Origin: a virus
Length of the DNA: 64,000 bases
IMG/VR virus record: IMGVR_UViG_3300034105_004543
Location: 1 to 64,000 of that record
Direction: 5' to 3' (one strand)
Below are positions 30,956 through 52,771 of this stretch, in pieces. Position 1 is the stretch's first letter. Every line of letters begins with the position of its first letter. The position numbers were made by a program, and so were the translations under genes. The notes under the pieces were generated by a model, which had not been told where the DNA came from, ran no database searches, and worked only from the letters and a program-made list of their open reading frames with translations.

Positions 30956-31435
30956 ATGAAACATATTAAGCGTATAAACGAATATCTTGATGGAGGGGTA
31001 TTTGGAGATACCTACGGTTTAGGTAGTGGAAATGGTGTTATGAAGGTTAGCTATAAACCATTTAGTGATCTCTCTGTATCTGTTGGTCCGGACCCCAATA
31101 TTGACAGAACCGTTAAGGGATCGGAATTCCAGATAGGTGATGTAGTTGAATCCCAACCAATAGATTCAAAGAAAAAGGTAATTGGAGTTATAGTTAGATG
31201 TTTCAGAAACCCCGATAATCAGCAATACAGATATTTTATACAATCCTTCATCGGAGAAAAGAAAAATAAAAAAGTTATAGAAATAAAATCTGATTGTATA
31301 AAATTTGCAGAAGGTGGGGATCACGGAAATATGGAAACTATATCCAAAAGTAAAGCAAGTGAACTCCCTGGATCTGTATATAACTCCAAAACTGTTTATA
31401 GCTCCAGTGAATTGGGACAGGAAAACAACGTTTAA
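30956..31435 (+). CDS. Hypothetical protein with SH3/KOW-like domain and MKHIKRINE leader
   Basis: FQIGDVV..GVIV..YFIQ; N-terminal motif shared with other late proteins. Confidence 0.55.
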   Translation: MKHIKRINEYLDGGVFGDTYGLGSGNGVMKVSYKPFSDLSVSVGPDPNIDRTVKGSEFQIGDVVESQPIDSKKKVIGVIVRCFRNPDNQQYRYFIQSFIGEKKNKKVIEIKSDCIKFAEGGDHGNMETISKSKASELPGSVYNSKTVYSSSELGQENNV

Positions 31436-31481
31436 GAGAAACCAATTCCATTATCTATAGTACAAATAAGAAACCCTATAG

Positions 31482-32387
31482 ATGATATTCGGACACAATC
31501 AAACAAATATATCATATCTTGGTATTCCTAAGAATCCAATAGCAATAGATAGGAGAATATGCTCATATGAGGATATTCTCGATCTTATTTTAGCACTATG
31601 CATAGTAAATTCTAATATATCATCTCGAACTGTTTGTTTAAATCTCGGTGAGCTTGATATCACCAATGAGTTTTTAAACACTGATTATATAGAAGAAGAA
31701 AACCCCTCCGTATCAGGTAGAATAAATGAGATAAATTCTATTATTAATAAAAATTCGATGAGAGTTGTAATTTTTATGGGTAAGGATTATTTTTTGGGAA
31801 GCCAGCTTGGTGAGATCAGAATAAAAACAATCAAGTTACTGGATAAACTTTCCGGAGTTTTAGAGGTTATAGGCATGAATGGTCCTTCCCTGATTATAAG
31901 AATAGGATCAGCTTATGGTAATAGGAAGAAAACAATGAAAGAATTCTGTTCCATGGTAAATAATCTCAAAAAACCGACAATACAAAGATTAACAGTTATG
32001 AATGACGAGAAACCAAGTCTTTTCTCTATAACTGATTTATTATCTGGTGTATATTACGAAACTGGTATTCCGTTATGTTTTAGAATTTTACCGCATCAAT
32101 TTAATGACGGTGGATTATCAATAAGGGAAGCAATGTTTCTTGCAGCTTCGACCTGGAAGGTAAACACAAAACCTTTCTTTTTTCATTCAGAAGCATCTGA
32201 AATAGACATAAATGGTAAACCATTATCACCCAATTGTTCGGATTCACTTACTATGAGGATACCAACTTTCGGTCTTGATGTGGATATTATAATAGATTCT
32301 CCAAACAGGGAACTTTGTTATCTTGAATATCTTAAAACACATAAAGGTCTTCCGCCGACAGTTATTAATAAAATTTCAAAGAAATAA
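31482..32387 (+). CDS. UV-damage endonuclease (UvsE/UVDE)-like protein, apparently degenerate
   Basis: IGSAYGNRKKTMKEF, RLTVMNDEKPSLFS, HQFNDGGLS..AASTW..P..HSE follow UVDE architecture. Confidence 0.7.
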   Translation: MIFGHNQTNISYLGIPKNPIAIDRRICSYEDILDLILALCIVNSNISSRTVCLNLGELDITNEFLNTDYIEEENPSVSGRINEINSIINKNSMRVVIFMGKDYFLGSQLGEIRIKTIKLLDKLSGVLEVIGMNGPSLIIRIGSAYGNRKKTMKEFCSMVNNLKKPTIQRLTVMNDEKPSLFSITDLLSGVYYETGIPLCFRILPHQFNDGGLSIREAMFLAASTWKVNTKPFFFHSEASEIDINGKPLSPNCSDSLTMRIPTFGLDVDIIIDSPNRELCYLEYLKTHKGLPPTVINKISKK

Positions 32388-32435
32388 TTTTTTATCCCCG
32401 CAATATTTGATTATATTTGTAAGAAAATTATAATT

Positions 32436-33134
32436 ATGTTCAAATTAGAAACAATAGAAAAATTTCTTTATTTTGATGTAGAGACAGTTTGTTCGGAAAA
32501 AGATCTATCTACACTACGAATAAAAAATCCAAGACTTGCTGATCTTTGGAAAAGGAGAGCTATTTATTATCGTGGGGTAAATCCAGAAATGTCCCACTTA
32601 AGTGATGATGATGTTTATTTAGCTAAGGCATCACTTGAACCTGAATTCGCCAAAATAGTTTGTGTTTCTTTTGGATCATTTAGTGACGGCGAGAAAGTTT
32701 TTAAATCTTTTTATGGAGTCGATGAGCTTGATATACTTCAGAAAAGTAATAAAGTTTTCAATAATGCGATGGGAAAAAATTGGAAATTATGTGGACATAA
32801 TATAAAGGGATTCGATGTGCCATGTCTGGGTAAGAGGATGGTATATAATGGAATAAATCCGTCAGTTAATCTACAGGTCTGGGACAAGAAGCCATGGGAG
32901 ATACCATATATTGATACTTCGGACATTTTTGCTTTTGGTAGCTGGACACAGCAGAAGTATTTAAGCTTGGATCTTCTTTCTTGCTCACTCGGTGTCAAAT
33001 CACCCAAAGAAAATATGGATGGTTCTAAAGTTAATGAATACTTTTGGATTAATGAGGCATATGAAGAAATAAAGGAATACTGTGAGATTGATGTTAGAAC
33101 TGTGATGGACGTCTTGGAAAAAGTCTGCTTCTAG
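32436..33134 (+). CDS. PolB-type 3'-5' exonuclease (DEDDy)
   Basis: FDVETV, GHNIKGFDVP, IDT, YCEIDV. Confidence 0.9.
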   Translation: MFKLETIEKFLYFDVETVCSEKDLSTLRIKNPRLADLWKRRAIYYRGVNPEMSHLSDDDVYLAKASLEPEFAKIVCVSFGSFSDGEKVFKSFYGVDELDILQKSNKVFNNAMGKNWKLCGHNIKGFDVPCLGKRMVYNGINPSVNLQVWDKKPWEIPYIDTSDIFAFGSWTQQKYLSLDLLSCSLGVKSPKENMDGSKVNEYFWINEAYEEIKEYCEIDVRTVMDVLEKVCF

Positions 33135-33153
33135 AAATACCGACAAATACATT

Positions 33154-33191: not shown

Positions 33192-34007
33192 GTGGATAGA
33201 GTATTAAATTTTAATTTATTTATAGAAAATGATAATAGCAGAATCTTCGAAAAGGAGGTAAGTGCATTTTATCATGATGAACTAAATCCTATTTTCTGGA
33301 AAAAGAAAAAGGATAAGAATGGAAATGTCGAATGGGTATTCGATCAGCGTGTTAGAAGAAAGCTTTTAAGAATCGCTAATGATTTCTATGAAAAATTCCC
33401 AGAACTTCTAAAGGGAAGGGTAATAAAGGATATCCAATTGACTGGATCGCTTTCAAATTACAACTACACAAATTTCTCGGATCTCGACGTGCATGTTCTA
33501 GTAAATCTGGATGGCATAGATGACGATAATCCAAATATTCTTAAAGCTGCTATAGACGGTATAAGATTCATATGGAATCTTAGACATGATATCTCAATCC
33601 GTGGATATGATACTGAATTATATTTACAAAGGGAGGACGAACCCCATGATTCAACCGGATTATTTTCGTTGCTTGATAATGAATGGGTAAAAAAACCTGT
33701 TTATAATCCTCCATTGATAGACGAGATGGACGTTTCTAAAAAATATGATTCAATTTCATCGGATATAGATAAATTAAGTGTCAAATTAAACAATCTTTCC
33801 GATCTACCAAGTAATGCCAAAGCTTTATACAAAAGGTGTCTTAAACTTAAAGATAAGATACAAAAAATGAGAAAAGAGGGTCTCTCCAGTGAGGGAGAGA
33901 TGTCAATCGGTAATCTTGTATTTAAAAAGCTAAGAAATGATGGATATATAGAAAAATTAATAGATACCATATCTAAATCATACGATAAAATTTACACAGA
34001 AAAATAA
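33192..34007 (+). CDS. Pol-beta superfamily nucleotidyltransferase
   Basis: LTGSLSNYNY..SDLDVHV and a third carboxylate in DTELY; GTG start. Confidence 0.85.
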   Translation: MDRVLNFNLFIENDNSRIFEKEVSAFYHDELNPIFWKKKKDKNGNVEWVFDQRVRRKLLRIANDFYEKFPELLKGRVIKDIQLTGSLSNYNYTNFSDLDVHVLVNLDGIDDDNPNILKAAIDGIRFIWNLRHDISIRGYDTELYLQREDEPHDSTGLFSLLDNEWVKKPVYNPPLIDEMDVSKKYDSISSDIDKLSVKLNNLSDLPSNAKALYKRCLKLKDKIQKMRKEGLSSEGEMSIGNLVFKKLRNDGYIEKLIDTISKSYDKIYTEK

Positions 34008-34015
34008 ATTAAATT

Positions 34016-36790
34016 ATGAACATACTCTTACCTAAAACGGGGAAATATAATATCGGTGATGACTTTCCGCTGATAAGCATACCCACTGATATATCCGAAA
34101 TGAATCCAGTGGAAAAAACATTTGATGATTTTCAGTGGTGGGCGGAGTCCAGCGAGTTTAAAAAATGGATGGATAAGAATAAAAGACAATGGGTAGCTGA
34201 TTCTGAGGACATGACGAAATATGCTGATAGCCTAAGTGATCTTATAAGAGAACACATTGGATCATATGCTTTCGATAATGAAATAAACGAATCTGATGTT
34301 TTATCTTTCGATGAATATGATACAATTAATGAGGCGGGGGAACCTTTATCGGATGAAGCTAAAGTCGGTATAAAATTTCATTATGCTTATAATAAACTTA
34401 AAGCCGATGGTAAATTAAAATCCATTTCGTCTGTTGAAGCTGATTTACCTGCCGGAGCGGAAAAAGCTGTTTTTCTTGTTATGGAAGATCCTGATACAAA
34501 AAAGAGCATCGACGAGACACTAAAAGCTTATAAGATGATTGGTCTACCTGGAGCTTCGGAATCTAAGATAAAAATAGTATCAGTAAAGGAAACATTACCA
34601 GGTGGACCATTGGATCCAGATACGACAACGTCCACCTTAATTCAGGGTGTATTAAAAAGTGCTGGTGAGTATGCAGCTATCGGAGTTGGCGTAGGTGTAA
34701 CCTGGGCAATATTGAGAAAGGTTGGTTATACCGTTGCTGGTGTTTCTGCATTAAAGGCATTAAGGGGTCTTGCTCCTGTTGCTAAGGCTGGAACGGAAGT
34801 TGCGAAAACAAGTGGGACATTAGCAAAAAGCGCAGCATTTCTTAAGAAAATATCTTCTGGTGGAATAAACAAAGTTAAAGTTCTAGGAAACGGATTATTT
34901 AACCTTGTTAAATTTAAAAATAGTGCAGTTGTTGGTAAATCCATAGTAAGAGGGATAAGGGGAGCAAGTAAAGCTGCTGTATTAGGTAAATCCTCAATAC
35001 CTGGAATAATGACAGCATTCAAAACTGGATTAAAGAGAGGCGTTACAAAAGGTGGTGCTAGGTTAATTCCTTTTGTTGGTGAGGTTCTTTTAGCTGTTGA
35101 TGCAATTGGATCAACCTGGAATTGGTTCAGTGATAATCAAGCTCCTAAATGGACTGAAATAGAGGATACGATAGCTCCTGGTAAAGGGGGTAGGGAATTC
35201 AATCCTGGAAAAATAAAAGATGGTACTGCAATAACAATATGTTGGAAACAACCAGCTGGTACTGGGCTTGGTATAGCTACAAGTTTTCTTTATAGTAATG
35301 ACACAAGAACAACCGCTGAATTATTTAAAATAGGCAAATCTAAGGATGGCGGTTCATCGATATTTATTTTAACATCGGTAAATTCTAAAGAATACCAACA
35401 AGCACTTTTAAACTATGCTGCAGTTATAGTTGAAATAAAGGATAAAGATATAAATGCTCAAGGTGGTCTTAATCAGCTGGTAAGATTGGTTGATAATGAA
35501 GATATGGATGTTAAGGTAGCTTATCTGGATAAGCCAGAGGATATGGCTTCCAATTTTAATTTTAAAGGTATATGTGATTGGTCAACTGCCCAAGAATATT
35601 ATGATGCTGCATCGGATCAATATTTAATATCAGATAATGATGCACCAGAGTCCTATGAATATTATTATAAGACAAGTAAGAATGACTATGTGAATGTTTC
35701 TGGTAATCTACTTACCAACGAGGAAATAGGTTCTAAAAGCGATTCTGATATCCAGGATATGTTTGCAAATGCTGATACTAAAATAAACAATACAAAACCC
35801 GAACCGAAGGAAGAAAAACGTAAACCCTTGCCTGGCGACGGAGGTCCTGCTAAGAAAGAGGATGCTAAATTCAAGGAGAAAGAACAAGAAGGTGGTACGA
35901 GTGATACACAGATAGCAGATTCCGAAAACAATAGAGAACTTTGGTTAACACCAATGGTCAACGAATCTGCAAAAACTGGTATGGTTATAAGAAAATTTGC
36001 TGAATTTGAGGATGTGCTGGAGTATGTTGTCACTTCAGGAAAATATCCTGAATATTCAAGTTTGAATGAGAAAACATCCAATGATGATAATCTAGTGCTA
36101 GATGCAGAACAGGCATCAGAGCCAGCTAAGATTGCTGTTTATGCGGTGAGTGATATTGTATATGCAGATCCTGCCGATAGACAATATACTGTGGCAGCAT
36201 TCAAATATTTTATGATAGATCCTGTTGACTTTGACGCACCTGTAGATTCACTAATTGGTGTCGGTATAAATACCAACGAAACAATGGTTGACCCAAGGAG
36301 AGGTGTCTATGAATTTAAGGAGAAAAAGGAAAGGGAGGAGAAGGAGGAAAGAAAACCATCACCGGAAGAAAATCCAGAGCAAGATGATAGCGGATCTAGT
36401 AATACACCAGATTCGAATGATGATAATGACGATGAAAATGAACCAAACAAAGACGATTACTTCATCACTGCAGATCCCGATGATATTAGCATCAAGAACA
36501 GAAAGAATGCAACGGTGATAAGAGATAAAAACTTTAAAGGCGGAATAAACATCGTGGATGAATTCCTTACTGATAAGGAAAAAGAAATTCTAGGTATACC
36601 AACATGGAAAGCAGTAACGTTAGCTAAATCTTTCTTGAATGGACAAGGTGAAGTTATAAAGGTTAAGCTTAAAAATAGATATGCACCAATGTTTAATAAA
36701 GCTAAAACCTATGAAGTTCAGGACGGTGAGGCATTCCAAATTGCTAAAAAATTCGCTGCAGAAGTGGAAGATAGAATAAAATTTCAATAA
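34016..36790 (+). CDS. Large hypothetical protein with Gly/Ala-rich hydrophobic helices (possible ejected protein)
   Basis: AAIGVGVGVTWAIL and LIPFVGEVLLAVDAIG segments; several INE/VNE/LNE motifs. Confidence 0.55.
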   Translation: MNILLPKTGKYNIGDDFPLISIPTDISEMNPVEKTFDDFQWWAESSEFKKWMDKNKRQWVADSEDMTKYADSLSDLIREHIGSYAFDNEINESDVLSFDEYDTINEAGEPLSDEAKVGIKFHYAYNKLKADGKLKSISSVEADLPAGAEKAVFLVMEDPDTKKSIDETLKAYKMIGLPGASESKIKIVSVKETLPGGPLDPDTTTSTLIQGVLKSAGEYAAIGVGVGVTWAILRKVGYTVAGVSALKALRGLAPVAKAGTEVAKTSGTLAKSAAFLKKISSGGINKVKVLGNGLFNLVKFKNSAVVGKSIVRGIRGASKAAVLGKSSIPGIMTAFKTGLKRGVTKGGARLIPFVGEVLLAVDAIGSTWNWFSDNQAPKWTEIEDTIAPGKGGREFNPGKIKDGTAITICWKQPAGTGLGIATSFLYSNDTRTTAELFKIGKSKDGGSSIFILTSVNSKEYQQALLNYAAVIVEIKDKDINAQGGLNQLVRLVDNEDMDVKVAYLDKPEDMASNFNFKGICDWSTAQEYYDAASDQYLISDNDAPESYEYYYKTSKNDYVNVSGNLLTNEEIGSKSDSDIQDMFANADTKINNTKPEPKEEKRKPLPGDGGPAKKEDAKFKEKEQEGGTSDTQIADSENNRELWLTPMVNESAKTGMVIRKFAEFEDVLEYVVTSGKYPEYSSLNEKTSNDDNLVLDAEQASEPAKIAVYAVSDIVYADPADRQYTVAAFKYFMIDPVDFDAPVDSLIGVGINTNETMVDPRRGVYEFKEKKEREEKEERKPSPEENPEQDDSGSSNTPDSNDDNDDENEPNKDDYFITADPDDISIKNRKNATVIRDKNFKGGINIVDEFLTDKEKEILGIPTWKAVTLAKSFLNGQGEVIKVKLKNRYAPMFNKAKTYEVQDGEAFQIAKKFAAEVEDRIKFQ

Positions 36791-36849: not shown

Positions 36850-38814
36850 ATGTATAAAATGCCAACAACTAAAAATTTAAACGAAGAATTGGTTTTCATC
36901 CTTGAGAGACAATCATCAGTACTTGAATCTTCAAAGACTGATAATGATGATTATGTACTAGAAGGTACTGCTGCTGTTTTCGGTAAAGAGAATAACAACA
37001 ATAGAATCTACGAAGAAGCTGAATATCTTCCGCACCTAAACTATCTTAATGAGAAAATAGCTCAAAGAAGACTAGTTGGTGAATTAGATCATCCTGAAAA
37101 GTTTGATGTTTCTCTTAAGAACATTTCTCATATAATTGAAAAACTTGATCACGACAAGACTGGAAGGGAAATTAAGATCAAAGTTAGACTTTTAGATACC
37201 CCTATGGGACAGATAGCTAAAAATCTTGTTGATGCTGGTGTTCCTTTGTCAATCTCTTCTAGAGCAGCTGGTTCCGTTGGTAACGATAAAAAAGTACAGA
37301 TTAAAAAAATATTCACATACGATCTAGTTGCTGATCCTGGATTTCAGGACGCACAGCTAGAAAGAGTATACGAAAGCGCTGGATATCACCTTAATGATTT
37401 CTTCGAAATGAGAAATAAAAGTGTTACTAACGATCTTCTTTGTGTAAATGAATCATTAGGTCTAAAAAATGATTCTGACACTAAGATATATAAAGTTGAA
37501 AATAACGAAGAATTTAATAATCTCGTATCAAAATCAGATAAAAATAAGACGATCCTCATGGAGAATAATGAATTTGTGACTGCAGAAGAATTAAACCAAT
37601 ATTCTGTTTTCTTAAAAAAGGAAATGGAATCAATGAATTCTAAAATTGCAGAAATTAAAGAGCAAAAGCAAGTATTAGTTGAATCTAGTGTTGAAGATAA
37701 AAATTCAAACCTTGAAGAAAGAGTTGCTAAATTAGAAAAATATTCTGAGTATTTAGCTGAGAATTTAGATAATGCTATTAAGTATGGTGAATACCTTGCT
37801 GAAAACTTAGACGAAAGTATAAGCTATAGTAAATATCTTGCTGAAAACTTAGATAAGAATATTTCTTACTCTAAATATCTAGCTGAAAATGTTGACAAAT
37901 CAATTTCTTACACTGAGTATGTTGCAGAGTCAACAGATAAAGGAATAGAATATACAAAATACCTTGCTGAGAAATTAGATCAGAATATTCAATATTCTGA
38001 ATATATAGCGGAAAACCTTGATAAAGGTATTTCTTACTCTGAGTATCTTGGTGAAAACTTAGATAAAGGTATAGCCTACTCTGAGTACTTAGCAGAAAAA
38101 TTAAATGATGGTATTGAGTATACTGAATACCTTGCAGAAAATCTTAACAAGAATATTCAGTATTCTGATTACTTAGCAGAAAATGTTAATAAAGGTTTAG
38201 ATTATTCTGATTACCTAGGAGAAAAATTAAAAAAATCAATTTCTTATACTGAATACATAGCTGAAACTGTTAATACAACTAGATACAAAGCTAATGACAC
38301 ATTAAGGGAAAGCGTAGATCTTTCTGCTTCCGCAGGATTAAACGAATCCGGATTTGCTGGAGACTATACAGATCTTACAACAAGAATAGATAGTTTGATA
38401 GAATCAGTTAAAACACAAAAAACTGAATCAAATATAAACGAAGCTTCTAAGTCAATGAAGCAAACAGCCAACACACAAAAGGCAGACGAAGTTCTTAACG
38501 AAAATGAGAACAAAAACAAAACAGGTCTTAATTTTATTGACACAATGCCTGAAGAATACACACAAGTTTGGGAATCACTTACTGAAGGACACAAGCAATC
38601 AATTATTGCTCAAAGTAACTTCTATAGATTAGATACACCTTACCAAGTGAAAAACTTCTGGTCAACACGTCAATTAGGAGCTGCTACTGTTGGAGTTCAA
38701 AAATTAGATGAGAGCGAGAATATTGCAATGCCTAATACACAAGCAAATGGTTATTCTAACGAATATATGAATGCTATTGCTTCTGCATTAGAGAAAAAAT
38801 TTCAAACAAGATAA
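36850..38814 (+). CDS. Prohead protease (gp21-like) fused to a scaffolding/core domain
   Basis: LEG..ENNNNRIY, GELDHP, SHII, LDTPMG, ISSRAAGS, YDLVADPGF; then a 14-aa repeat coiled coil. The start may be 36859. Confidence 0.92.
   Translation: MYKMPTTKNLNEELVFILERQSSVLESSKTDNDDYVLEGTAAVFGKENNNNRIYEEAEYLPHLNYLNEKIAQRRLVGELDHPEKFDVSLKNISHIIEKLDHDKTGREIKIKVRLLDTPMGQIAKNLVDAGVPLSISSRAAGSVGNDKKVQIKKIFTYDLVADPGFQDAQLERVYESAGYHLNDFFEMRNKSVTNDLLCVNESLGLKNDSDTKIYKVENNEEFNNLVSKSDKNKTILMENNEFVTAEELNQYSVFLKKEMESMNSKIAEIKEQKQVLVESSVEDKNSNLEERVAKLEKYSEYLAENLDNAIKYGEYLAENLDESISYSKYLAENLDKNISYSKYLAENVDKSISYTEYVAESTDKGIEYTKYLAEKLDQNIQYSEYIAENLDKGISYSEYLGENLDKGIAYSEYLAEKLNDGIEYTEYLAENLNKNIQYSDYLAENVNKGLDYSDYLGEKLKKSISYTEYIAETVNTTRYKANDTLRESVDLSASAGLNESGFAGDYTDLTTRIDSLIESVKTQKTESNINEASKSMKQTANTQKADEVLNENENKNKTGLNFIDTMPEEYTQVWESLTEGHKQSIIAQSNFYRLDTPYQVKNFWSTRQLGAATVGVQKLDESENIAMPNTQANGYSNEYMNAIASALEKKFQTR
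37735..38275 (+). repeat. Coding 42-nt (14-aa) tandem repeat, about 13 copies of I-x-Y-S/T-E-Y-L-A-E-N-L-D-K-G
   Basis: Directly visible in the translation. Confidence 0.95.
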
Positions 38815-38831: not shown

Positions 38832-40553
38832 ATGAAATTGATTAACGAACAAGAAATCTACGATACCTGGTCACCGCTTATTGAAAGCAAAGCTGGTATT
38901 ACAGATGAAGGAAAAAAAGGATGGTTGACTAAATATTGTCACTATCACTCATTAAACGAATCTGCTGGAGCTTATAACTCTTTAGGTGTTGTTAATGGTA
39001 TGGGTAGCGTTGCTCCCCCTGCATTCCCAGGAATGGGTTCATTCCAAGGTGGTAATGCTAATGGTGGTTTCTATAACACAGGTAACCAAGGATCTGGAGA
39101 TAAATTCCCATCTTTATTGCCTTTAGCAATTCAAGTTGCTGCAAAAACTATCGGTTTTGATATCGTTCCAGTTATCCCTATGTCGGGTCCAACAGGTATC
39201 TTATCTTACTTAGATTATGTTTATGCTGGTGGTAAAATTGGTGCTTCTGCTGCTTCTACAGCTGCTGATCAATTAGCTTCTGCTCCAACATTAATTAAAT
39301 TCCCAGTTTATACTGGATCTGGTGCTACTGGTGCTACTGGTGCTACTGCAGCTTCATTCCCAACAGTTGGTGCTACAGGTAACATCTCAACATTACAATT
39401 AACATTTGTGGGTCTTTCTAGAATTGACGGTTTCCCAATATTTGAAGTAATGGGTCTGGCTGCTGGACAAAACATCTCTAACTATATTAATGGTACACCA
39501 ACAGCTCTTACTAACTTTGGTATTGCTGGTCCTGCTTTATCAACAGGAGCTACTTATTCTCCAAATGGTTATGCACCACAATTAGTTAAAGCTTTAGAAG
39601 ATCATATCCAAGGTTTCTCTGGTGCTGGTTTCAACAACACTACTGACTGGCAAGGTCCTTATGTAGATGGTACTAAAACTTACAATCCAATGTTAAGAGG
39701 TGTAGGTGAGTCTACTTACTTCAACTCTATGGGTCTTTCGACTTTCACTAAATTCGTTGAAGCTGAAACTTTCCAAGTTGCTGCTGCAGTTACAACTGAG
39801 CAAATTCAGGATCTTAACAAACAATTCGGTATCGACGTTATCTCAATGATCGAGAACGCATTGGTTAATGAGGTATCTCAAGCTATCAACAAACACATCT
39901 TAGCAAGAGCATTCGCTTTAGGTTGGTCTAACCACGTACAGTTCAACAACGTTGAGCAACAAAACTTAAACTTGAATCTAGTGATTGCTGGTTCTGCTGG
40001 TACAACTGCTTCTTATATAAATAAATCTGACTCTAACGTTAGTATGGCAATTCCTGCTGGTCCTGCTTCAGGTGGTTACGAGAACTTATCAACTCTTCAA
40101 AGAAGATTATTCTCTAGAATCCTTGCAGCTGCAAACGTAGTAGCTAACAGAGGTAGAAGAGGTCCTGCTAACTTCATCGTTACTAACGCTGCTGTAGCAA
40201 GTGCACTTCAAGATATTTCTCAGTTCACTTTCGCACCATTCTCTAACACATTAACACAAAACAACGGTACTTTATACCCTGTAGGTTCTCTTGCTGGTAT
40301 GACAGTATATGTAGATCAGAACATGAACTACAATGATACGAGAGTGTTAATCGGAAGAAAAGGTGGTGATGACGAACCAGGATTAAAATTCATGCCTTAC
40401 ATGATGGCGGAGTCTATCCAGACTATCTCAGAGGGTACGATGAGTCCAAAAATCGCAGTTAAATCTAGATACGCTTTAGTTGAAGCTGGTTTCTTACCTG
40501 AAACTATGTACTTAACATTCTATGTTAACGTACCTGCTGGTGGTTTAGCATAA
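38832..40553 (+). CDS. Major capsid protein (gp23-like)
   Basis: DIVPVIPMSGPTG, TTEQIQDL, NEVSQAINK, RRGPANF, GSLAGMTVYVD, FMPY, PKIAVKSRYAL; strongly biased codon usage. Confidence 0.96.
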   Translation: MKLINEQEIYDTWSPLIESKAGITDEGKKGWLTKYCHYHSLNESAGAYNSLGVVNGMGSVAPPAFPGMGSFQGGNANGGFYNTGNQGSGDKFPSLLPLAIQVAAKTIGFDIVPVIPMSGPTGILSYLDYVYAGGKIGASAASTAADQLASAPTLIKFPVYTGSGATGATGATAASFPTVGATGNISTLQLTFVGLSRIDGFPIFEVMGLAAGQNISNYINGTPTALTNFGIAGPALSTGATYSPNGYAPQLVKALEDHIQGFSGAGFNNTTDWQGPYVDGTKTYNPMLRGVGESTYFNSMGLSTFTKFVEAETFQVAAAVTTEQIQDLNKQFGIDVISMIENALVNEVSQAINKHILARAFALGWSNHVQFNNVEQQNLNLNLVIAGSAGTTASYINKSDSNVSMAIPAGPASGGYENLSTLQRRLFSRILAAANVVANRGRRGPANFIVTNAAVASALQDISQFTFAPFSNTLTQNNGTLYPVGSLAGMTVYVDQNMNYNDTRVLIGRKGGDDEPGLKFMPYMMAESIQTISEGTMSPKIAVKSRYALVEAGFLPETMYLTFYVNVPAGGLA

Positions 40554-42489: not shown

Positions 42490-43647
42490 ATGAAAATCAT
42501 TCCATCTTTTGAGGATTTCGAACAGTATGAAGGTCTTATAGAAAATCTAGATCCATCGTTGCTTAAAGAGTTAAGATCCATAGAAATTCCAGAAATAACA
42601 TCCCCTATAAATGAGGGTAGAATTGCTAATTTTTTAACCAATAAACTTTCGAAGTTCCTTCTTGGATCTTTCTCTGGAGTTGGTATGATAGATGAAGCTA
42701 TCAAAGTGGTACTTGCCATTGAACTTGATCTTATTCAGAAATCTAGTGACTTTAAAAAGGAGGTAGCTAAAATTGAAGATCAGATAGACCAGCTCTCCAA
42801 GGAAAAAAACACAGATAAAATCACGGCGTTATCGAAGGAAAGGGAAGCCAAAATGAACGAATTTGATGCATACGAAAAAGCACAGAATCTCAAACTTAAA
42901 AAAGCAAGGGATGTAGCTAAACAAATCGTAAATGGCAATTCTAGAAGAAAGGAATATCTTGATTCCTGTTATGCAGAAAACGAGATAGAAATGGCTGAGC
43001 TTGAATATAGATTAGCAAAGGAAAGATCTGAGGATCAGACAGCATTAAAATCGTACGAGGAGAAACTTGCTAAAGCTAGAGAAGAAGCAGAAGCTAAAGC
43101 CAAGGAGATAGAAGAACAGATGAAGAAAGAGGAGGATAATAAGGAACCTAAGGAAGTAAAAACTGAGGTTTCGTTTGATGCTGAAAAGGAGAAAAAAATT
43201 ATATCAAGAAGAAAAGGTGGTGATGTAATTAAAAGAAAAAATGAACTTGAAAAGGAGATAGCTGATATTAAATCAGATATGGAGAGAAGATTAAATCAAA
43301 TTTCTAATAAGATAAAGAAATCCACTAAACCACTAACGGAAAGATACTTAGAAAATGCAAAACTCGATCTGATAGAGATGGCAACTGCACTTGATTATAA
43401 AAAGGAGCTTCTTTCAACATTTAGAAATCTAGGTAAGAATGCAACTGAAATTGAGAAATCACTTGGTAATAATAAGGAATTTAAGGATGCTATAGATAAG
43501 ATTAATAAAGGTGCGGGTAATGCTAAACAGATAAAAGGTGAGGTGTTAAAAGCATTTAGAGATGCATTCTCAACAGTCGGTATTGGTAAATCTGGTGTAT
43601 TAACTATAGGAATCATAGACAATCTTAAAGAAAAAATAAATAAATAA
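42490..43647 (+). CDS. Coiled-coil hypothetical protein (probable internal head protein)
   Basis: Start MKIIPSFEDF preferred because ATG 42469 abuts the promoter motif; K/E-rich helices. Confidence 0.55.
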   Translation: MKIIPSFEDFEQYEGLIENLDPSLLKELRSIEIPEITSPINEGRIANFLTNKLSKFLLGSFSGVGMIDEAIKVVLAIELDLIQKSSDFKKEVAKIEDQIDQLSKEKNTDKITALSKEREAKMNEFDAYEKAQNLKLKKARDVAKQIVNGNSRRKEYLDSCYAENEIEMAELEYRLAKERSEDQTALKSYEEKLAKAREEAEAKAKEIEEQMKKEEDNKEPKEVKTEVSFDAEKEKKIISRRKGGDVIKRKNELEKEIADIKSDMERRLNQISNKIKKSTKPLTERYLENAKLDLIEMATALDYKKELLSTFRNLGKNATEIEKSLGNNKEFKDAIDKINKGAGNAKQIKGEVLKAFRDAFSTVGIGKSGVLTIGIIDNLKEKINK

Positions 43648-43649: not shown

Positions 43650-44552
43650 ATGACTTTAAAATTTAAAGATTGGGATCAACTCAACGAGGCTAGCATAATC
43701 GATAAAGTAAAAAACTGGTTTAGTAGCAAATTTGGCGGACCTATAGCTAAGATAGATGATATCGTGGAAGAATATAGATCTGCTGAGGGTGATTATGTGG
43801 ATGAATGGGAAAAACTTAAAGGTGAACTCGACAAACTTGATCTTGAGAAGGGTCAAACCAAAAGTGATCCAGCTGAACTTAAAAGAATTGAAAAATTCAT
43901 AGATAAAAATAATCAGGCATTGGAAGCTGGAGAAAAGGCCCATGCTAAGAGGATAGATCTTATTATGAAGGAGGTTAAGCAGGAAATCAATGGCGATACA
44001 AAACTTAGAAAATACTGGGAATATAATAAAACAAAGGTTGACGCTGAGGTTGCTGAAGAAATGTATAATAGAGCTAAGAATTTAGCAGATGCAGCATTGG
44101 GTAAATCCCTATACAATAAATACAAATCGACTGTTATAAAAGCTAAAGAAAAAGATTTAGAATTTAGAAAGTTGTACGGAGATCTCATAGGCGGTACAGG
44201 GAGAGGCAAAGAAAATGAGCCAAATTCCACTGTTCCTGGTGGGGGATCTACTGGATTAAGCGATTCCCAAATGGAACAGTTTTTAAATATGTCCATAACT
44301 GATTTTTCAAAAAGCTCTAGAACCATGGATAAGGGTGATATTAGAGAACTAGTTTCTTTTCTTATAAGAAAAAGAAATGATCTCTACGTACAGATGGATC
44401 TTGAAAGAGATGCTCTTAATGAACTAATAGCTAGAAAGCAAGGTGCTGGTGCAACTAAAGAAAGCGCAGCAACTAAGCTTAAAGAGATACGTGAAAAATA
44501 CATGGATAAGATCAGGGATCTTAGAGGAAAAATAACTGTGGTTAGAAGATGA
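43650..44552 (+). CDS. Coiled-coil hypothetical protein, distant paralogue of the previous ORF
   Basis: Shared NE-amphipathic helix-ID..NGxxxxxxY..E.AE..Y..AK pattern. Confidence 0.55.
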   Translation: MTLKFKDWDQLNEASIIDKVKNWFSSKFGGPIAKIDDIVEEYRSAEGDYVDEWEKLKGELDKLDLEKGQTKSDPAELKRIEKFIDKNNQALEAGEKAHAKRIDLIMKEVKQEINGDTKLRKYWEYNKTKVDAEVAEEMYNRAKNLADAALGKSLYNKYKSTVIKAKEKDLEFRKLYGDLIGGTGRGKENEPNSTVPGGGSTGLSDSQMEQFLNMSITDFSKSSRTMDKGDIRELVSFLIRKRNDLYVQMDLERDALNELIARKQGAGATKESAATKLKEIREKYMDKIRDLRGKITVVRR

Positions 44553-44809
44553 TAACATTTAATTCGTTTAGATTACTCGAAGAAGAATCAGAGGCAACAA
44601 AAATACAGCAACTAAGATTGCAGTTGTCCCAAAATTTTGATGAGTTAACTGATGCAAAATCTATTAAAAAAGAAGGTGATCCAGCCTCTGAAGCAGCAAG
44701 TCTTGATCAGCAAGCAGCAGTTCATATTAAAGTATCCAATACAATGAAAGCTCTTTCAGCAGAAATTAAAAAACAACCAAAAACAGTAGCTACGCCTGCT
44801 GCAACATAA
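44549..44809 (+). CDS. Small helical hypothetical protein
   Basis: ATGA overlap; MITFNSFRLLEE leader. Confidence 0.55.
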   Translation: MITFNSFRLLEEESEATKIQQLRLQLSQNFDELTDAKSIKKEGDPASEAASLDQQAAVHIKVSNTMKALSAEIKKQPKTVATPAAT

Positions 44810-44821: not shown

Positions 44822-47362
44822 ATGAATCAATATTTAAAAAATAATCCTGTAGCTAGATCAATATTCGAAAACCATAGGGAGGAGACAATCGGAAATCTAT
44901 TCGAAAATGAAGTTGTTGATGCACTTTTAAGAACCATCTGCGATGCTTGCTTGGATATCTACCAAAAGATAACTTTCGACGTAGCACCGGGTAGTGACAG
45001 AAATCCTAATGGTACCAGAGAAAAGCTTAGTCCACTTGTTGATGCAAAAAGTATTACTAATCTTATAGCTATTCTTAGAAATGACTCAGCAGAAAATGCA
45101 GTCAGAAATCCAGCTTATGCTGATTCTAAAAATCTATATTTGCAATCCCTTGAAAAATATACAGAGGCCTTAAAAGTTGCATGTGATATAAACAAGTCAA
45201 ATGAAAAATTCATACTTGATTATATCAAAGCCTGTGCTAACGTTAAGCAGAAGCAAACCGAATATATGGCAAAAGCATATAAGGATGAAATGGAAGCTAA
45301 AGTTAATGATTCTGAATCTTACTATTTTGGGGAAGACATCGTGGACGTAAACGAAAGTGGAATTTTTACTGGATATAGAGGTAGAGTCGAGGATCTTAGA
45401 AAGATATTGACTAATCTTATACTCTCATCTAAAGACAAGACATCAAAGAATGGGTACGGCAGGGATTGGCAAACAACATTTGTTGATCTTGATGAAAAAA
45501 GAAAAATCCTGGATATAAACAAGGGAGCATTCGGTGAGAAGGATAAAAAAGCACTAGATGAATTGGAAAAGCAAGTTGATAAATATAGACTTGAGTTTAT
45601 AAAAGCTTCCAATATCGCAATAGATAAATCATTAGCTGCTGTTGAAAATGACGAGGAACTTAATGGAGCTTATGGTGATGTTAATACACTCTGTGACGAA
45701 GCTAAATTGTTAAAAACTAGAGCTGAATCCCAATATACAACCGCTATAGTCGCAATAAAGGATGAGCATAAAGAAAAGGAAGAGGTTTTTAATAAGACTT
45801 TATTTCCTATAAGTAAGGGTAATACTGATGCGGATGATAAATTTAAAGATAGCGGATTAATCTTTGCTATTCAGAAAGCTCTTTGTGATGGTATACCATC
45901 GGCTGGAAAATTAATAAGATCTAAAGGTGGACCTAATGGTAAATATGGACCAGCTACCAAGTCCGTTATTGCAACTATACAAAAGATGGAGGGAAATAAA
46001 AATGTTAATGGTGAAATAGATCAGGCTTTGCTTACTGATATACTTTCTTCTGATTGGGTCTCCACTGCAAATAAGACAGCAATAAATAAAGCATTGGATA
46101 TTGCAAAAGTTAAAATGAATGATGGTCTTTCGACTGTTTTCTCCTTCAGTGATTTCGTGGGTGAGAGTAATAAAGTTAATGAAGGAAAGATTACCATCAA
46201 TAATGATGATTTTGAAAAAGAATTGGCTTCCCAATACAATCAATCTATTTCTGTAGAACCTCTTTCCCAACCCAAAAGTAAATCCCAACCAAAGGAAGGT
46301 GAGGAGGATGGTGACACTGATTCAAGTGGATCAAAATCAGCGGATGCTAATAAGCTTGCAGAAAAGCTTAGAAGCGTTTATAAAATTGATGTTGAAGGAA
46401 AAAACTTTACAAGACCTGATGGATCACTTAAACCTTCGTATAATCCCAAATTCATGGAAGCTTGGATAAAAGCTTTAGATGGTGTATCTACCTCTCCTGG
46501 AGACTATGGATATTTCTTTAATGATGGGGGTTTATATAAAATAAACAGAAAAGAAACATCTCTAAAATCACCATCGAATTGGTCTAAATTTGAAAAAGTT
46601 GATGAGAAAGACGATGCTTTTCTATTCTTTAAAAACAACGCATCACATTTTAAGACAATCGGATATATTAATGGTGCTAAAAAATATGATGCTCTTAATA
46701 AATTTGCATCAGCAATTTCTGAAAATAAACTAAAGAAATTTAATAATATATCAAAAAAGATTGGAAGTATATTAATGAATAAAGAGACTCCCTTCATATC
46801 AATGGAAAATATGAAAGGTGATATAAAAACGGTATTTGATATTGCTTTAGATACCAATTCTACGAATCCTGATATGGGAGTATATGAATTTGTATTATTA
46901 AATACACTGCTTGTTTCCGTATCCAATTGTGTAACGTATGACCCAGATAAGAAAAAATATATTCCTTGTATTAAATGGATTTCTGATAACATTTTAACTG
47001 AAGAAGTTTGTCAGGGTGTTGCTGATGATAGATTATTAAATGACGATGCTCCCGACGGTTCATTATTAATATTCACTAAGGACACATTAATTAATCCAAA
47101 AAGAAGCGATATAGAATCCATATTGAATAAAAAAAATAACGACGGATGGTCCAATCAGAAAGAACTTTCATCTCTTGCTCCGCTTATTAAATTGAGACCT
47201 GGAACAGGAATGAAGACAGCTAAAGGTATAGTTATCCTGAATCTTAGAAGAATTTCTAAAACGATATATCCAGCGATTTCTAATCTGTGTAAGAGAATGA
47301 ATACTGTTGAATTTAAAGATTTTCCTCAGGTGCTACCAAATAAATGTATTGAAATAAAATAA
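44822..47362 (+). CDS. Large helical protein with an internal peptidoglycan-binding (PG_binding_1-like) domain
   Basis: IFAIQKAL..NGKYGPATKSVIATIQK..VNGEIDQ. Confidence 0.65.
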   Translation: MNQYLKNNPVARSIFENHREETIGNLFENEVVDALLRTICDACLDIYQKITFDVAPGSDRNPNGTREKLSPLVDAKSITNLIAILRNDSAENAVRNPAYADSKNLYLQSLEKYTEALKVACDINKSNEKFILDYIKACANVKQKQTEYMAKAYKDEMEAKVNDSESYYFGEDIVDVNESGIFTGYRGRVEDLRKILTNLILSSKDKTSKNGYGRDWQTTFVDLDEKRKILDINKGAFGEKDKKALDELEKQVDKYRLEFIKASNIAIDKSLAAVENDEELNGAYGDVNTLCDEAKLLKTRAESQYTTAIVAIKDEHKEKEEVFNKTLFPISKGNTDADDKFKDSGLIFAIQKALCDGIPSAGKLIRSKGGPNGKYGPATKSVIATIQKMEGNKNVNGEIDQALLTDILSSDWVSTANKTAINKALDIAKVKMNDGLSTVFSFSDFVGESNKVNEGKITINNDDFEKELASQYNQSISVEPLSQPKSKSQPKEGEEDGDTDSSGSKSADANKLAEKLRSVYKIDVEGKNFTRPDGSLKPSYNPKFMEAWIKALDGVSTSPGDYGYFFNDGGLYKINRKETSLKSPSNWSKFEKVDEKDDAFLFFKNNASHFKTIGYINGAKKYDALNKFASAISENKLKKFNNISKKIGSILMNKETPFISMENMKGDIKTVFDIALDTNSTNPDMGVYEFVLLNTLLVSVSNCVTYDPDKKKYIPCIKWISDNILTEEVCQGVADDRLLNDDAPDGSLLIFTKDTLINPKRSDIESILNKKNNDGWSNQKELSSLAPLIKLRPGTGMKTAKGIVILNLRRISKTIYPAISNLCKRMNTVEFKDFPQVLPNKCIEIK

Positions 47363-48016: not shown

Positions 48017-48028
48017 ATAGATATAATT

Positions 48029-49486: not shown

Positions 49487-50140
49487 ATGACAAGAATAGT
49501 TAAAAATTTCGATTCTTTCTCAAGAGAGGAGCAAATCCATGAAGATTTTGATATTATGGGATTACTAGGTAAAACTGTAGGATATCTGGGCGATGGATTT
49601 ATCGATACAATAAAACAAAAATTTACTGCTAGACTATTAGAAAGATTAGGGATAAAGGAAGATTCATTAGCTTCTGAATTTGTTCAGCAGGTTGTTTCCA
49701 GCATAGATATGAAGGAATGGCCAGGGATACTTAGCGGTGATAATGATAATATGAAATTCTTCATACCTAAAATTGCAGAGGCTATACAATTCACATTAGA
49801 AAGGAAGGGATTCGAAGGGATAACAAGTACTTTAGGTTTAGAACCTAATGGTATGATAATGAGAACTATAGTAAATACTCTACAGGATAAAGGAACAGGT
49901 AAAGCTAAAATTGAAAAATTTCTTTTTGAATTACTGGGCGATGGTAATATTGCATCTGAAACAGTAGCATCCCTGGATGATAAGGATAAAGAAAAGTTTA
50001 CAAGTGCACTCACAAAAGTAGCTAGTAAAAAAGTAAACTATAAACCAGGAACAACCGATTCCAGTACTGATGGCGAATCATTTCTTGGAAATATAATGGG
50101 TGGTTTGCTTGGAGGTAACGGAGCAGCAGCAACAGTATAA
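49487..50140 (+). CDS. Hypothetical late protein
   Basis: ATG 49487 downstream of GATATATA; VKNFDSF..IHE leader. Confidence 0.6.
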   Translation: MTRIVKNFDSFSREEQIHEDFDIMGLLGKTVGYLGDGFIDTIKQKFTARLLERLGIKEDSLASEFVQQVVSSIDMKEWPGILSGDNDNMKFFIPKIAEAIQFTLERKGFEGITSTLGLEPNGMIMRTIVNTLQDKGTGKAKIEKFLFELLGDGNIASETVASLDDKDKEKFTSALTKVASKKVNYKPGTTDSSTDGESFLGNIMGGLLGGNGAAATV

Positions 50141-50155
50141 AAATAAAGACCAGTA

Positions 50156-50491
50156 ATGAATCAAAAAGATGTAAGCAAAAGGGATATATTAGATTTTGAA
50201 AAATTTCTAACAAAAGTACATGATGATAAGTATAAGCCATTTGCTCCGATAAATCAGGAGGATAGAAGTGATGCTAGTGGGTTATCAAAAATAAAAAGGG
50301 AGGCAAGATATGATTTCGTCGGTTATGCTGATGCAGTTTTTGCACATGATTCAAAAATAGATGTACCTGGATATAGAGTTGATGCTGGAGGAAAGTCAGG
50401 AATGGCTGATGCTGGTGCTTTTGGTACAGCTTTTAATGCCAGTGAATCTGAAAACAATGACGTATTTATTAAGAGATTATCCGATTTTTAA
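50156..50491 (+). CDS. Small hypothetical protein
   Basis: ILDFEKF and FIKRLSDF motifs. Confidence 0.55.
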   Translation: MNQKDVSKRDILDFEKFLTKVHDDKYKPFAPINQEDRSDASGLSKIKREARYDFVGYADAVFAHDSKIDVPGYRVDAGGKSGMADAGAFGTAFNASESENNDVFIKRLSDF

Positions 50492-50508
50492 TTAATAATA
50501 CACACCAT

Positions 50509-50540
50509 AATAAAAAAGGAGCATTATGCTCCTTTTTTAT
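50509..50540. terminator. Bidirectional terminator between convergent genes
   Basis: ATAAAAAAGGAGCA-tta-TGCTCCTTTTTTAT. Confidence 0.88.
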
Positions 50541-51265
50541 TATGTAATAGTTTCTATGAATCTTTCTTTTGCCAATTTATATATATCCGAATTTTCATCG
50601 AAGTCCTCATATATTTCTATTACATATAATTCCGGTGATACGTTTTTTTCTATTGAGAATGCATCTAATATTTCATGGTATATGAACTCGTAATTCATAG
50701 AATACCTAGAATTTTTTAGTATTATTTTTTTCAGTACACATATTTTTTTATTGCCATTCTCCGTTTTTAAAGTTACTCCTCCTTGCCAATAATATGGTAT
50801 GATCTTATCATTCACCATATTTCTTATTATTAATATACCAGAATTAACTGGATCTTCCTTTTCTAGATTAAATTTTGATTGTACTTTGAATATTTTAATT
50901 TTCGATTCCTCGTTCTTTAACATATCTAGGAATATTTCTGAGTATTCATATAGTGTTTCTAGTGAGGATTCTATTATCATCAATATGGATTCTTTTTTCT
51001 CCCGATCAAGATTAGCAAAATTAAAATTTTTAAGGTAACTTTTTTCACTATCTGTCAACTGTGAAATTATAGTTTCCCCTATTTTATTATTCTTTTTAAA
51101 TTCGTTTAAAGACTTGATTATTTTCGAAACAGCCCTTAATATTGGATAGCAATTTTTAGAATTTATATTTTTACTTATGGATTTCAAGTAATCCAATAGA
51201 ACATATTCTTTATGCTCTGGGTCTATTGGTTCTTTAATGAACCAGATGGTGCTTAGGTTTTTCAT
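50540..51265 (-). CDS. Hypothetical protein
   Basis: 241-aa reverse-strand ORF ending at the bidirectional terminator. Confidence 0.7.
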   Translation of the reverse strand: MKNLSTIWFIKEPIDPEHKEYVLLDYLKSISKNINSKNCYPILRAVSKIIKSLNEFKKNNKIGETIISQLTDSEKSYLKNFNFANLDREKKESILMIIESSLETLYEYSEIFLDMLKNEESKIKIFKVQSKFNLEKEDPVNSGILIIRNMVNDKIIPYYWQGGVTLKTENGNKKICVLKKIILKNSRYSMNYEFIYHEILDAFSIEKNVSPELYVIEIYEDFDENSDIYKLAKERFIETIT

Positions 51266-51349
51266 CTTTAACTTTTAGAAGTTTGATCTGTTTATATATT
51301 TACACCATAAATTTTTTAAAATTGATATATACTTTAAAAATTTATATCA

Positions 51350-51796
51350 ATGAAAAAAATAAACGAGGGAAGGATCTATGATTATTCAGCTTTTACTGAT
51401 AGTAAGAAACCAACTAATACCAGTGATTACACATTTGGGATGGAATTGGGATATACCGATATCGACATATATAATAGACCGGAAGAATATGATAACATTT
51501 CTGATGCTAAGATTTTTATAGATTATTCAGTTAACCTTATAATAAAAAAATCCGGTATAGACAGCATAGATATGGTTGTTAATTCAATGGAGCTCGATTT
51601 TGAAATTGATGATTATCCCAACGATACTAGAGAATTCGATATTGATCTCATCCCAGGCAGAACAATAGATTATAATCAAATATCCATTGATAAAGGGGAA
51701 GTTCTTATACCATCCTATCCTAAAGAAGTAAAAATTGATATGGGAAAATCAACAGATGCTAAAAATTTTAAAATAAATGTGATTTTTGGATCATAA
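51350..51796 (+). CDS. Hypothetical late protein
   Basis: GATATATA at 51324; MKKINEG leader. Confidence 0.6.
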   Translation: MKKINEGRIYDYSAFTDSKKPTNTSDYTFGMELGYTDIDIYNRPEEYDNISDAKIFIDYSVNLIIKKSGIDSIDMVVNSMELDFEIDDYPNDTREFDIDLIPGRTIDYNQISIDKGEVLIPSYPKEVKIDMGKSTDAKNFKINVIFGS

Positions 51797-51808
51797 TTAA
51801 AGAAATAT

Positions 51809-52771
51809 ATGAAGATTTTAAACTTTAAAAATTTTATATTGAATGAAGCAACCTCCCAGATATATGATGAAATTAGCGGGGTTAATTCCATGTCTGATAA
51901 TGGGTACGAATTAGAAGCTGAGAAATTTGATAATGAAAATCATACTGCACCATTTGGAAAGATTCTTCTAACCAAGAATTTAGCAAATAATATAAGATTG
52001 TCTTTTAATAATTATAAAGGTAAAAAAATTAGTGATTTGTGGATACCTAAAGACCATTGCGATGTTAGTGATATTAATGACGATACCACTAAAATAACAA
52101 TACCAGGAAATAGTGCATGGCTAGAAATTGATGATAATAGATCCAAAGTAGAGGATTTTATAGAGGATCTTTATAATAGTAAGATGAGAGAAAAATTATA
52201 TTCCGGTGATTTAGTTGACACCATAAGGGACGACATATATTTCATAATGAATATAATTGGGATACCGTGTGAGGTTATCGATGTTAAAAAATTAGACGGT
52301 GATAATGAATATGAGGTTATTCTCGATAATGGAATTTCAATAGATGTTAATAAAAAATCATCTGAACAGTTAATAGGAAGCTTTAAAATGTATAAAAATA
52401 ATGGTGAATCATCACCATCGGTTGAAATAAAGAGCAAAAACGGGAAACATAACTTTTATTTTTATAATGAAGATCTACCAAATCTGGATGACGAATCGGA
52501 TCTATCCGATGTAAAAAAGAATCATAGACTTTATTACCTATTAAAAAAGTCATTAGGTGTGGACGATAATGATGATAGAGAAAATTTTTATAAATATTTT
52601 GAAGAAAAATTAGGTAATTTTAAAGACGAAAATGACACTAATCTAAGTCCAGAGATGAAAAAATCTAGGATTGATGATGGAAAAAAATTGAAGGATCTTA
52701 AAAATATAGCAAATACGTTTAAGAACGAGGACGAAATAAGAAAAATATTTCCAAAAAACTTAGTAAATTAA
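51809..52771 (+). CDS. Hypothetical protein with capsid-targeting-like leader
   Basis: MKILNFKNFILNEA. Confidence 0.6.
   Translation: MKILNFKNFILNEATSQIYDEISGVNSMSDNGYELEAEKFDNENHTAPFGKILLTKNLANNIRLSFNNYKGKKISDLWIPKDHCDVSDINDDTTKITIPGNSAWLEIDDNRSKVEDFIEDLYNSKMREKLYSGDLVDTIRDDIYFIMNIIGIPCEVIDVKKLDGDNEYEVILDNGISIDVNKKSSEQLIGSFKMYKNNGESSPSVEIKSKNGKHNFYFYNEDLPNLDDESDLSDVKKNHRLYYLLKKSLGVDDNDDRENFYKYFEEKLGNFKDENDTNLSPEMKKSRIDDGKKLKDLKNIANTFKNEDEIRKIFPKNLVN

Follow-up and report, generated by a model that had tools for sequence, protein, structure and literature searches.

In bacteriophage T4, a short capsid-targeting sequence (CTS) brings internal proteins to the scaffolding core, after which the prohead protease gp21 removes it (PMC5694885, PMC3012670). 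In the passages of these two articles that cite Mullaney and Black (1996), the CTS removed by gp21 is described on IPI-III and Alt. The same protease cuts the scaffold protein gp22 into small pieces (PMC5694885). In giant phages of the phiKZ/SPN3US group, long propeptides are processed according to an S/A/G-x-E or A-x-E rule (PMC5694885, PMC10052503). Here, we analyze 64,000 nucleotides (the window) of the viral IMG/VR record IMGVR_UViG_3300034105_004543, which are the first 64 kb of a single 102,336-bp contig. Otherwise unrelated proteins of this stretch share a two-part tag, composed of an aromatic element of the form h-h-x-F-x-(D/E)-F/W/Y (h, hydrophobic residue) and, after 0–27 residues, h-N-E followed by a small residue. 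The literature searched did not yield any description of this motif. In our reading, it is probably a T4-type signal for capsid targeting and processing that is used by a clade of huge phages.

Results

A composite motif concentrated in head-module proteins

Open reading frames (ORFs) are designated below by the window position at which they start, and an arrow marks a predicted cut. All eleven strings quoted as examples of the motif by a first-pass annotation of the window are present in the ORFs to which they had been assigned, as are the cleavage-like sites that it had pointed out in the capsid protein (SLNE↓S) and in the scaffold/protease protein (LNE↓E, VNE↓S, LNE↓S, INE↓A). Across 79 ORFs with 33,110 amino acids (aa), (I/L/V)-N-E was observed 51 times versus 29.0 expected (z 4.2), and Asn ranks second among the enriched middle residues of h-x-E. 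All of the excess lies in head-module proteins, a set picked partly on account of its h-N-E sites, with 5.4 sites per 1000 aa versus 0.93 elsewhere. The residue after h-N-E is S, A or G at 17 of 28 head-module sites (background 21%, p 6e-6) versus 3 of 26 sites elsewhere, and eight proteins harbor h-N-E inside their first 17 residues, where 1.7 are expected (p 4e-4).

The loose aromatic expression h.{1,2}F..[FWY] is by itself not enriched (88 matches versus 82 expected); followed by h-N-E, it is (7 versus 1.8 expected). Only the composite and a position-specific matrix discriminate, and a position-specific scoring matrix (PSSM) was therefore built from orthologue alignments. Each protein was left out of training in turn and 32,557 contig positions were ranked, which placed the nine left-out sites at ranks 1, 7, 9, 9, 10, 11, 18, 20, and 145. 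Given that about eight training sites necessarily outrank each left-out site, most left-out sites are the contig's next-best position. The motif differs from chance, confirming the first-pass observation on stronger grounds than a reader of the letters alone could have had.

Conservation and portability of the tag

Relatives of the window number 230 in IMG/VR, and orthologue counts were drawn from the best 80 of these (capsid identity 70–94%, contigs up to 434 kb). With aromatic-x-x-aromatic plus a downstream h-x-E as criterion, the tag is kept in 80–100% of orthologues (25–57 per family) amid poorly conserved flanks. Likewise, as a matter of the sequence rule only, h-x-E follows the tag in 80–100% of orthologues in eight of nine families; the exception in both respects is the internal module of ORF 44822, kept in 17/48. 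Both parts are retained in 52/52 orthologues of 33192, 56/56 of 43650, 25/25 of 44549, where the residues between vary, 45/56 of 42490, and 33/39 of 49487, where the spacer is variable, as well as in 52/53 and 50/53 orthologues for modules 1 and 2 of ORF 34016. The families themselves are diverged, tagged proteins 42490 and 43650 for example falling to roughly 30–40% identity. Residues between the fixed tag positions vary, as does the spacer of 0–27 residues to the cut site, which is the pattern expected when selection acts on a short linear motif. Conservation is far higher at predicted cut sites than in their surroundings, for example at LNE↓K at aa 683–685 of the 924-aa protein encoded by ORF 34016. 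Orthologues do not conserve the h-N-E strings of the UvdE-like endonuclease, of the exonuclease, or of the catalytic core of the protease.

Outside their leaders, tagged proteins lack mutual similarity (best E 0.022, between two K/E-rich proteins), and paralogy among them was rejected on this basis. Together with the leave-one-out ranks, this bears out the earlier claim of a real, portable tag common to unrelated proteins. In related loci, 21 ORFs without a homologue in the window bear the N-terminal composite, for instance MSRILNFNEFLSE↓A and MQNLRSFSDFSINE↓S, compared with roughly one estimated by chance among 253 such ORFs; some of the 21 are probably very diverged 44549 orthologues. Within the window, tail, replication, and nucleotide-metabolism genes lack the tag, and so do the enzymes encoded between tagged genes (asparagine synthase, AAA/kinase-like protein, UvdE, exonuclease, and HNH endonuclease). 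A search for extra tagged small ORFs in the 102-kb contig found none, and the ORF at 50799 was rejected as a tagged gene, being a hydrophobic frame opposite a minus-strand gene. PHROGs and Pfam yielded no match for tagged proteins except 33192, which matches phrog_36119 (unknown function).

A T4-type head protease and capsid protein adjoin the tagged genes

The head maturation protease (36850..38814, + strand) is of the gp21/S77 type (~aa 13–201) and fused to a scaffold-like C-terminal part. It matches phrog_207 (2.9e-38) and Pfam Peptidase_S77 (PF03420; 31.3 bits, cutoff 27), and is related by BLASTP to T4 gp21 (5e-9), with GELDHP and SSR aligned to T4 GELNHP and SSR. These aligned GEL-x-HP and SSR segments hold the catalytic His and Ser. 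A PDB sequence search with the protease domain returned no match. Predicted cuts are LNE↓E (aa 10–12), VNE↓S (aa 199–201; nt 37444–37452), LNE↓S (aa 497–499), INE↓A (aa 529–531), and LNE↓N (aa 549–551), with h-x-E present in 80–96% of orthologues; VNE↓S, found in 96%, divides the gp21-like domain from the C-terminal part. The latter contains thirteen tandem 14-residue repeats, (E/K)-Y-L-A-E-N-L-D-K-x-I-x-Y-S (37750..38298, + strand; Tandem Repeats Finder period 42 nt), thirteen also being the orthologue median, and three more conserved h-N-E sites lie 3′ of them. The repeats carry h-A-E, with L-G-E in two of them. They are a candidate for a repeated scaffold with serial cut sites: given the T4-like h-A-E strings, cleavage may break the scaffold down into 14-mers.

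The major capsid protein (gene 38832–40553) matches Pfam Gp23 (PF07068, 4.9e-41) and aligns by BLASTP with T4 gp23 end to end from residue 1 (1e-12), the W-x-P-L-h-E segment included. Its predicted propeptide comprises aa 1–43, MKLINE...SLNE↓SAGAY (38832..38960, + strand), and its N-terminus is invariant in 40 orthologues. One P3–P1′ rule applies to capsid propeptide, scaffold, and tags. As had been proposed, the tag both adjoins a T4-type protease and capsid gene and ends in the h-N-E↓small motif of the capsid propeptide and scaffold.

The 80 syntenic IMG/VR relatives share the window's gene order around the capsid gene, and genomes of this clade reach about 430 kb. The nearest public phages are uncultured huge phages, namely LR756500 (462 kb, 45% capsid identity) and the Prevotella Lak megaphages (44%). 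Based on the capsid and protease families, the contig sizes of relatives, and the shared gene order, the source of the window is a huge phage with a T4-type head.

Proteins carrying N-terminal leaders

The first-pass annotation had counted at least ten cargo proteins, which is an overcount: eight proteins have the full two-part signal with orthologue support, namely 33192, 34016 (two internal modules), 42490, 43650, 44549, 44822 (internal), 49487, and 51809. Six of them (33192, 42490, 43650, 44549, 49487, and 51809) carry it as an N-terminal leader of 11–42 residues; these and all further tag features below lie on the + strand. The best-scoring instance is the leader of the 320-aa protein 51809, MKILNFKNFILNE↓A (51809..51847), which ranks 1 of 32,557 when left out and is kept in relatives of 23–77% identity; the ESM Atlas held nothing usable for this protein. 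The 300-aa protein 43650 starts with MTLKFKDWDQLNE↓A (43650..43688), its h-x-E being 100% conserved. In the 385-aa K/E-rich protein 42490, the leader reads MKIIPSFEDF..LIE..(18 aa)..SPINE↓G (42490..42615); orthologues begin at the same Met, the true start being the ATG at 42490, and INE↓G retains h-x-E in 98% of orthologues versus a flank identity of 28%. Two further leaders are found on the 86-aa protein 44549, MITFNSFRLLE↓E (44549..44581; orthologues ML.F..F.hNE), and on the 217-aa protein 49487, MTRIVKNFDSF..EEQIHE↓D (49487..49543), where most orthologues end in h-N/Q/D-E.

The sixth leader, ..VLNFNLF IE..IFE (33192..33251), belongs to a 271-aa nucleotidyltransferase-like protein (gene 33192–34007), whose orthologues close the leader with h-N-E. 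In its AlphaFold2 (AF2) model (predicted local distance difference test, pLDDT, 80.6), leader residues 1–22 are of low confidence and precede a weakly nucleotidyltransferase-like domain. The best Foldseek match is CdnE (6wt9, E 7.5e-4), and VIA gave Z 6.1–6.3 to FAM46 and CdnD over residues 31–175 in an output dominated by generic helical bundles. The sequence includes G-S-(x10)-D-L-D and has no Pfam match. This model weakly resembles CD-NTase, ANT, and TENT5 nucleotidyltransferases (Pol-beta-type), making 33192 the sole enzyme-looking tagged protein.

Three further proteins carry parts of the signal. MKHIKRINE↓Y of ORF 30956 (30956..30982) is a short leader with a cut-like site and no aromatic part, its h-x-E being 100% conserved in 44 orthologues. 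MKKINE↓G of ORF 51350 (51350..51367) is a weak instance, consisting of a short h-N-E leader only; this stub is confined to the closest relatives, and the N-terminus of the other orthologues, M-(G/S/A)-R-I-Y-D-Y, begins exactly at the residue that follows the predicted cut. Near the N-terminus of the 111-aa protein 50156, RDILDFEKF (50180..50206) represents the aromatic part alone, with no cut site after it; despite lying outside the training set it reaches 11.5 bits, and it is conserved in 38 orthologues. The same protein ends ..FIKRLSDF-COOH (50462..50488) after a conserved (S/N)-E-S, and LSDF is located at the very C-terminus in most orthologues.

Internal tag modules between folded domains

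That the tag also occurs internally, and in one family (50156, conserved ..LSDF-COOH) at the C-terminus, was likewise correctly read by the first-pass annotation. The 924-aa protein (gene 34016–36790) contains two modules. Module 1 reads INE↓S-DVLSFDEY-DTINE↓A (aa 90–106; 34283..34333) and module 2 VNE↓S..VIRKFAEF..SSLNE↓K (aa 648–685; 35957..36070); their downstream sites each keep h-x-E in 96% of orthologues, compared with flank identities of 29% and 10%, respectively. Between the modules, aa 200–370 form a long Gly/Ala/Lys-rich stretch with hydrophobic runs, a composition that could be membrane-active.

In the 846-aa protein 44822, a predicted cut VNE↓S at aa 176–178 (45347..45355) has h-x-E 100% conserved versus a flank identity of 31%, and the tag module reads MND-GLSTVFSFSDF-VGESNKVNE↓G (aa 432–454; 46115..46183). 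Glu178 and Glu454 are invariant in 33 sequences at a mean column identity of 46%. The AF2 model (pLDDT 77.9) has low-confidence segments at residues 18–28, 162–181, 434–458, and 477–503, of which 162–181 and 434–458 hold VNE↓S and the whole tag module, between confidently folded domains. Foldseek found no match to this model at E <= 0.001. Two other motif-like strings, TVEFKDF at the C-terminus of 44822 and SFEDFQWW close to the beginning of 34016, are conserved as parts of folded or uncut segments and were left out of the count.

Upstream boxes of the tagged genes

GATATATA is located 20–30 nt upstream of ORFs 33192, 36850, 42490, 49487, and 51350, as well as of the sheath and portal genes, with positions 33167, 42460, and 49460 preceding 33192, 42490, and 49487, respectively. 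It occurs in 17 copies versus 8.5 expected, 14 of them on the + strand. Tagged genes sit behind the same boxes, a putative late promoter, as structural genes.

Comparison with T4 and other large phages

The window resembles T4 in having a short leader common to unrelated proteins that ends in hydrophobic-x-Glu, together with a gp21-family protease and a gp23-family capsid protein. In the T4 record, ipII and ipIII both start MKTYQEFIAE↓A, and the comparison drawn by the first-pass annotation holds in form: aromatic-x-E-F, h-x-E, and a small residue, like MKILNFKNFILNE↓A. Locally, T4 Y-Q-E-F-I-A-E↓A compares with F-K-N-F-I-L-N-E↓A in the window, and MAKINE at the start of T4 gp24 with MKLINE (capsid protein) and MKKINE. 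Cutting of the T4 scaffold into small pieces by gp21 is matched here by the protease-scaffold fusion with its repeats and h-N-E sites. Unlike in T4, the signal of the window is in two parts with a 0–27-residue spacer and prefers Asn at P2; it also lies inside multi-domain proteins of 846–924 aa, often between two cut sites, and once C-terminally. Its carriers are mostly larger than T4 internal proteins, and the phage genome is roughly 430 kb.

In phiKZ, 201phi2-1, and SPN3US, many head and ejection proteins are similarly processed after Glu, by gp175/gp245-type proteases; further likenesses are that the protease is itself cut on its C-terminal side, that propeptides contain additional sites, and that a targeting role has been proposed for them. 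Their propeptides, however, have a small P3 residue, are mostly longer than 100 residues, and share no short consensus, whereas P3 in the window is I/L/V/M and the leaders span 11–42 residues with a defined consensus, which places them outside the phiKZ/SPN3US pattern. A parallel in gene arrangement is Tenacibaculum phage PTm1 (AP019524), where a "Prohead core scaffolding protein and protease" fusion is followed by the capsid gene in the same order. The PTm1 fusion has eight h-N-E strings and the capsid protein two near its N-terminus; capsid identity to the window is only 33%. No F-x-x-F leaders, only N-terminal h-N-E stubs, were found in 17 kb around the PTm1 capsid gene.

In Prevotella phage Lak-B5 (MK250024.1, 28489–70408), treating TAG as a sense codon raises the coding density from 0.71 to 0.91. 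In several ORFs close to its capsid gene, a basic N-terminal stretch is closed by h-N-E at residues 12–27 (e.g., ..VKRALNE and ..KKKLNE), which may be a different leader under the same cut rule.

Neighboring genes

The window has a G+C content of 33%, with nearly all genes on the + strand. Window genes named by PHROGs and Pfam include a neck protein, large terminase, tail sheath, and tail tube protein, two tandem portal paralogues, the head maturation protease and major capsid protein, as well as two sigma factors, DNA ligase, clamp loader, and exonucleases. The portal paralogues (21750–24999) both match phrog_213; the second starts MAGFLDF, an N-terminal F-x-D-F string that scores 7.8 bits with the tag matrix. 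Directly 3′ of the capsid gene, 40666–42417 encodes a 583-aa HNH/homing endonuclease that has a homologue in 4/80 related loci only and therefore looks like a mobile insertion. Amid the tagged gene block (47462–49435) lie an AAA/kinase-like gene and an asparagine-synthase gene, with homologues in 51–55 related loci. On the minus strand of an otherwise + strand block, a 241-aa ORF (50540–51265) had no orthologue in related loci, because that scan covered + strand ORFs alone. Outside the range considered by the first-pass annotation, an 853-aa ORFan (18036–20597) behind a GATATATA box has six h-N-E strings. Three of these are kept in 12 relatives (aa 355–357, 409–411, and 719–721), followed by S/N, S, and A/G/T, respectively; judged by these sites, it may be another processed head protein.

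Discussion

If the tag is a capsid-targeting and processing signal of the T4 type, the aromatic motif, borne on a flexible N-terminal extension or an inter-domain linker, would most likely dock its protein onto the assembling prohead core, that is, onto the protease-scaffold fusion with its 13 repeats. The h-N-E followed by S/A/G/E, 0–27 residues downstream, would be the preferred cut site of the gp21-family head protease, which would remove the tag once the shell closes. The 924- and 846-aa proteins would be cut at their tagged linkers, freeing several mature pieces. In this manner, the prohead would take up at least eight unrelated proteins, including two in the form of multi-domain precursors, and their mature parts could be retained in the virion. 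Our confidence differs between these elements. The conserved h-N-E↓small sites are very likely protease sites, and we lean towards the aromatic element being the address; delivery of at least some carriers into the host is a possibility that we rate somewhat below even. The first-pass proposal of an address tag that loads cargo into the head is upheld for the tag, its portability, and its head-protease context, with loading, tag removal, and injection being argued by analogy. Some tagged proteins, such as the K/E-rich 42490 and 43650, may belong to the core or scaffold instead of being injected.

Several observations weigh against this assignment. With the clade PSSM, the T4 CTS scores 8.6 bits and ranks 9–10 of 17,313 positions (56 kb of T4); it is outscored by several unrelated T4 proteins, and the resemblance is therefore one of form rather than evidence of tag homology. 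Near the capsid genes of the more distant relatives LR756500 and Lak-B5 (TAG read as sense), no F-x-x-F leaders were found, only N-terminal h-N-E stubs. In the window itself, the leaders of 33192 and 44549 end in IFE and LLE, not in h-N-E, and the 44822 module reads MND where most orthologues carry KMNE↓S just upstream of the module. The first aromatic residue of that module is kept in only 17% of orthologues, the second in 92%. Moreover, the predicted capsid cut site is not exactly aligned with T4 Glu65.

Chance or base composition, with AT-rich 5′ codons yielding K/N/I/F-rich N-termini, would be in keeping with a genome of 33% G+C and with the unenriched loose aromatic expression. We assign it a negligible probability and regard it as already refuted by the leave-one-out ranks, the internal modules conserved in diverging linkers, and the conserved cut sites; in addition, tags are conserved across orthologues and the N-termini of other genes on the same contig are untagged. 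It is rather improbable, too, that the tagged proteins are prohead core or scaffold parts for which the aromatic motif is a core-core assembly contact, with cleaved fragments exiting the head like those of T4 gp22, gp67, and gp68, and nothing being injected. Such a role would suit 42490 and 43650, which follow directly after the capsid gene, are K/E-rich (~40% charged), and have a pI of ~9 after the predicted cut; several T4 core proteins are also cut by gp21 (PMC5694885), and no tagged protein but 33192 looks enzymatic. The nucleotidyltransferase-like fold and motif of 33192 argue against it, as do the large, confidently folded domains with few cut sites in the 846- and 924-aa proteins, and the variable tagged ORFs of related phages fit cargo better than core parts.

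Slightly less probable again is an aromatic element that governs cleavage or folding and not head entry, acting as a protease exosite or as an inhibitory or chaperone-recruiting propeptide. A cut-like site is always found a short way downstream of the element, and in the passage of PMC10052503 that cites Snyder and Tarkowski (2005), T4 propeptides are reported to recruit GroEL as well. Capsid and scaffold sites, however, follow the h-N-E rule without an aromatic element, which is therefore not needed to define a cut site; 50156 keeps the aromatic element without a following cut site, and spacers range over 0–27 residues. Leader-guided maturation, in which the tag is the recognition sequence of a co-encoded modifying enzyme such as the asparagine-synthase-like protein (48029–49435), appears very unlikely. 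Its gene and the AAA/kinase-like gene do lie between tagged genes, with homologues in 51–55 related loci, but the enzyme matches two glutamine-amidotransferase domain families and starts MCGI, and therefore looks like an ordinary AsnB type. Furthermore, the closing motif of the tags is shared with the capsid propeptide and scaffold, and tagged proteins range up to 924 aa in size.

What is known of such huge phages comes from metagenomes alone, and the majority of their genes lack an assigned function. An address-and-cut signal would offer a sequence-only way to call head-internal or delivered ORFans, to locate their mature ends, and to reveal which large ORFs are really polyproteins; being a short, portable tag with a known cut rule, it might also serve as a protein-packaging handle. 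Tentatively, and with a good deal of doubt, F-x-(D/E)-F plus h-N-E can be viewed as a general, readable "load and cut" code of this huge-phage clade. If so, the packaged proteome would be predictable from sequence alone, multi-domain polyproteins would enter as a single unit and afterwards be split at their tagged linkers into individual mature proteins, and the 13-repeat scaffold would be a multivalent receptor setting cargo copy number. The capsid-targeting principle of T4 would thereby extend to a distant clade with ~430-kb genomes, in the form of a defined short consensus that the phiKZ/SPN3US giants lack.

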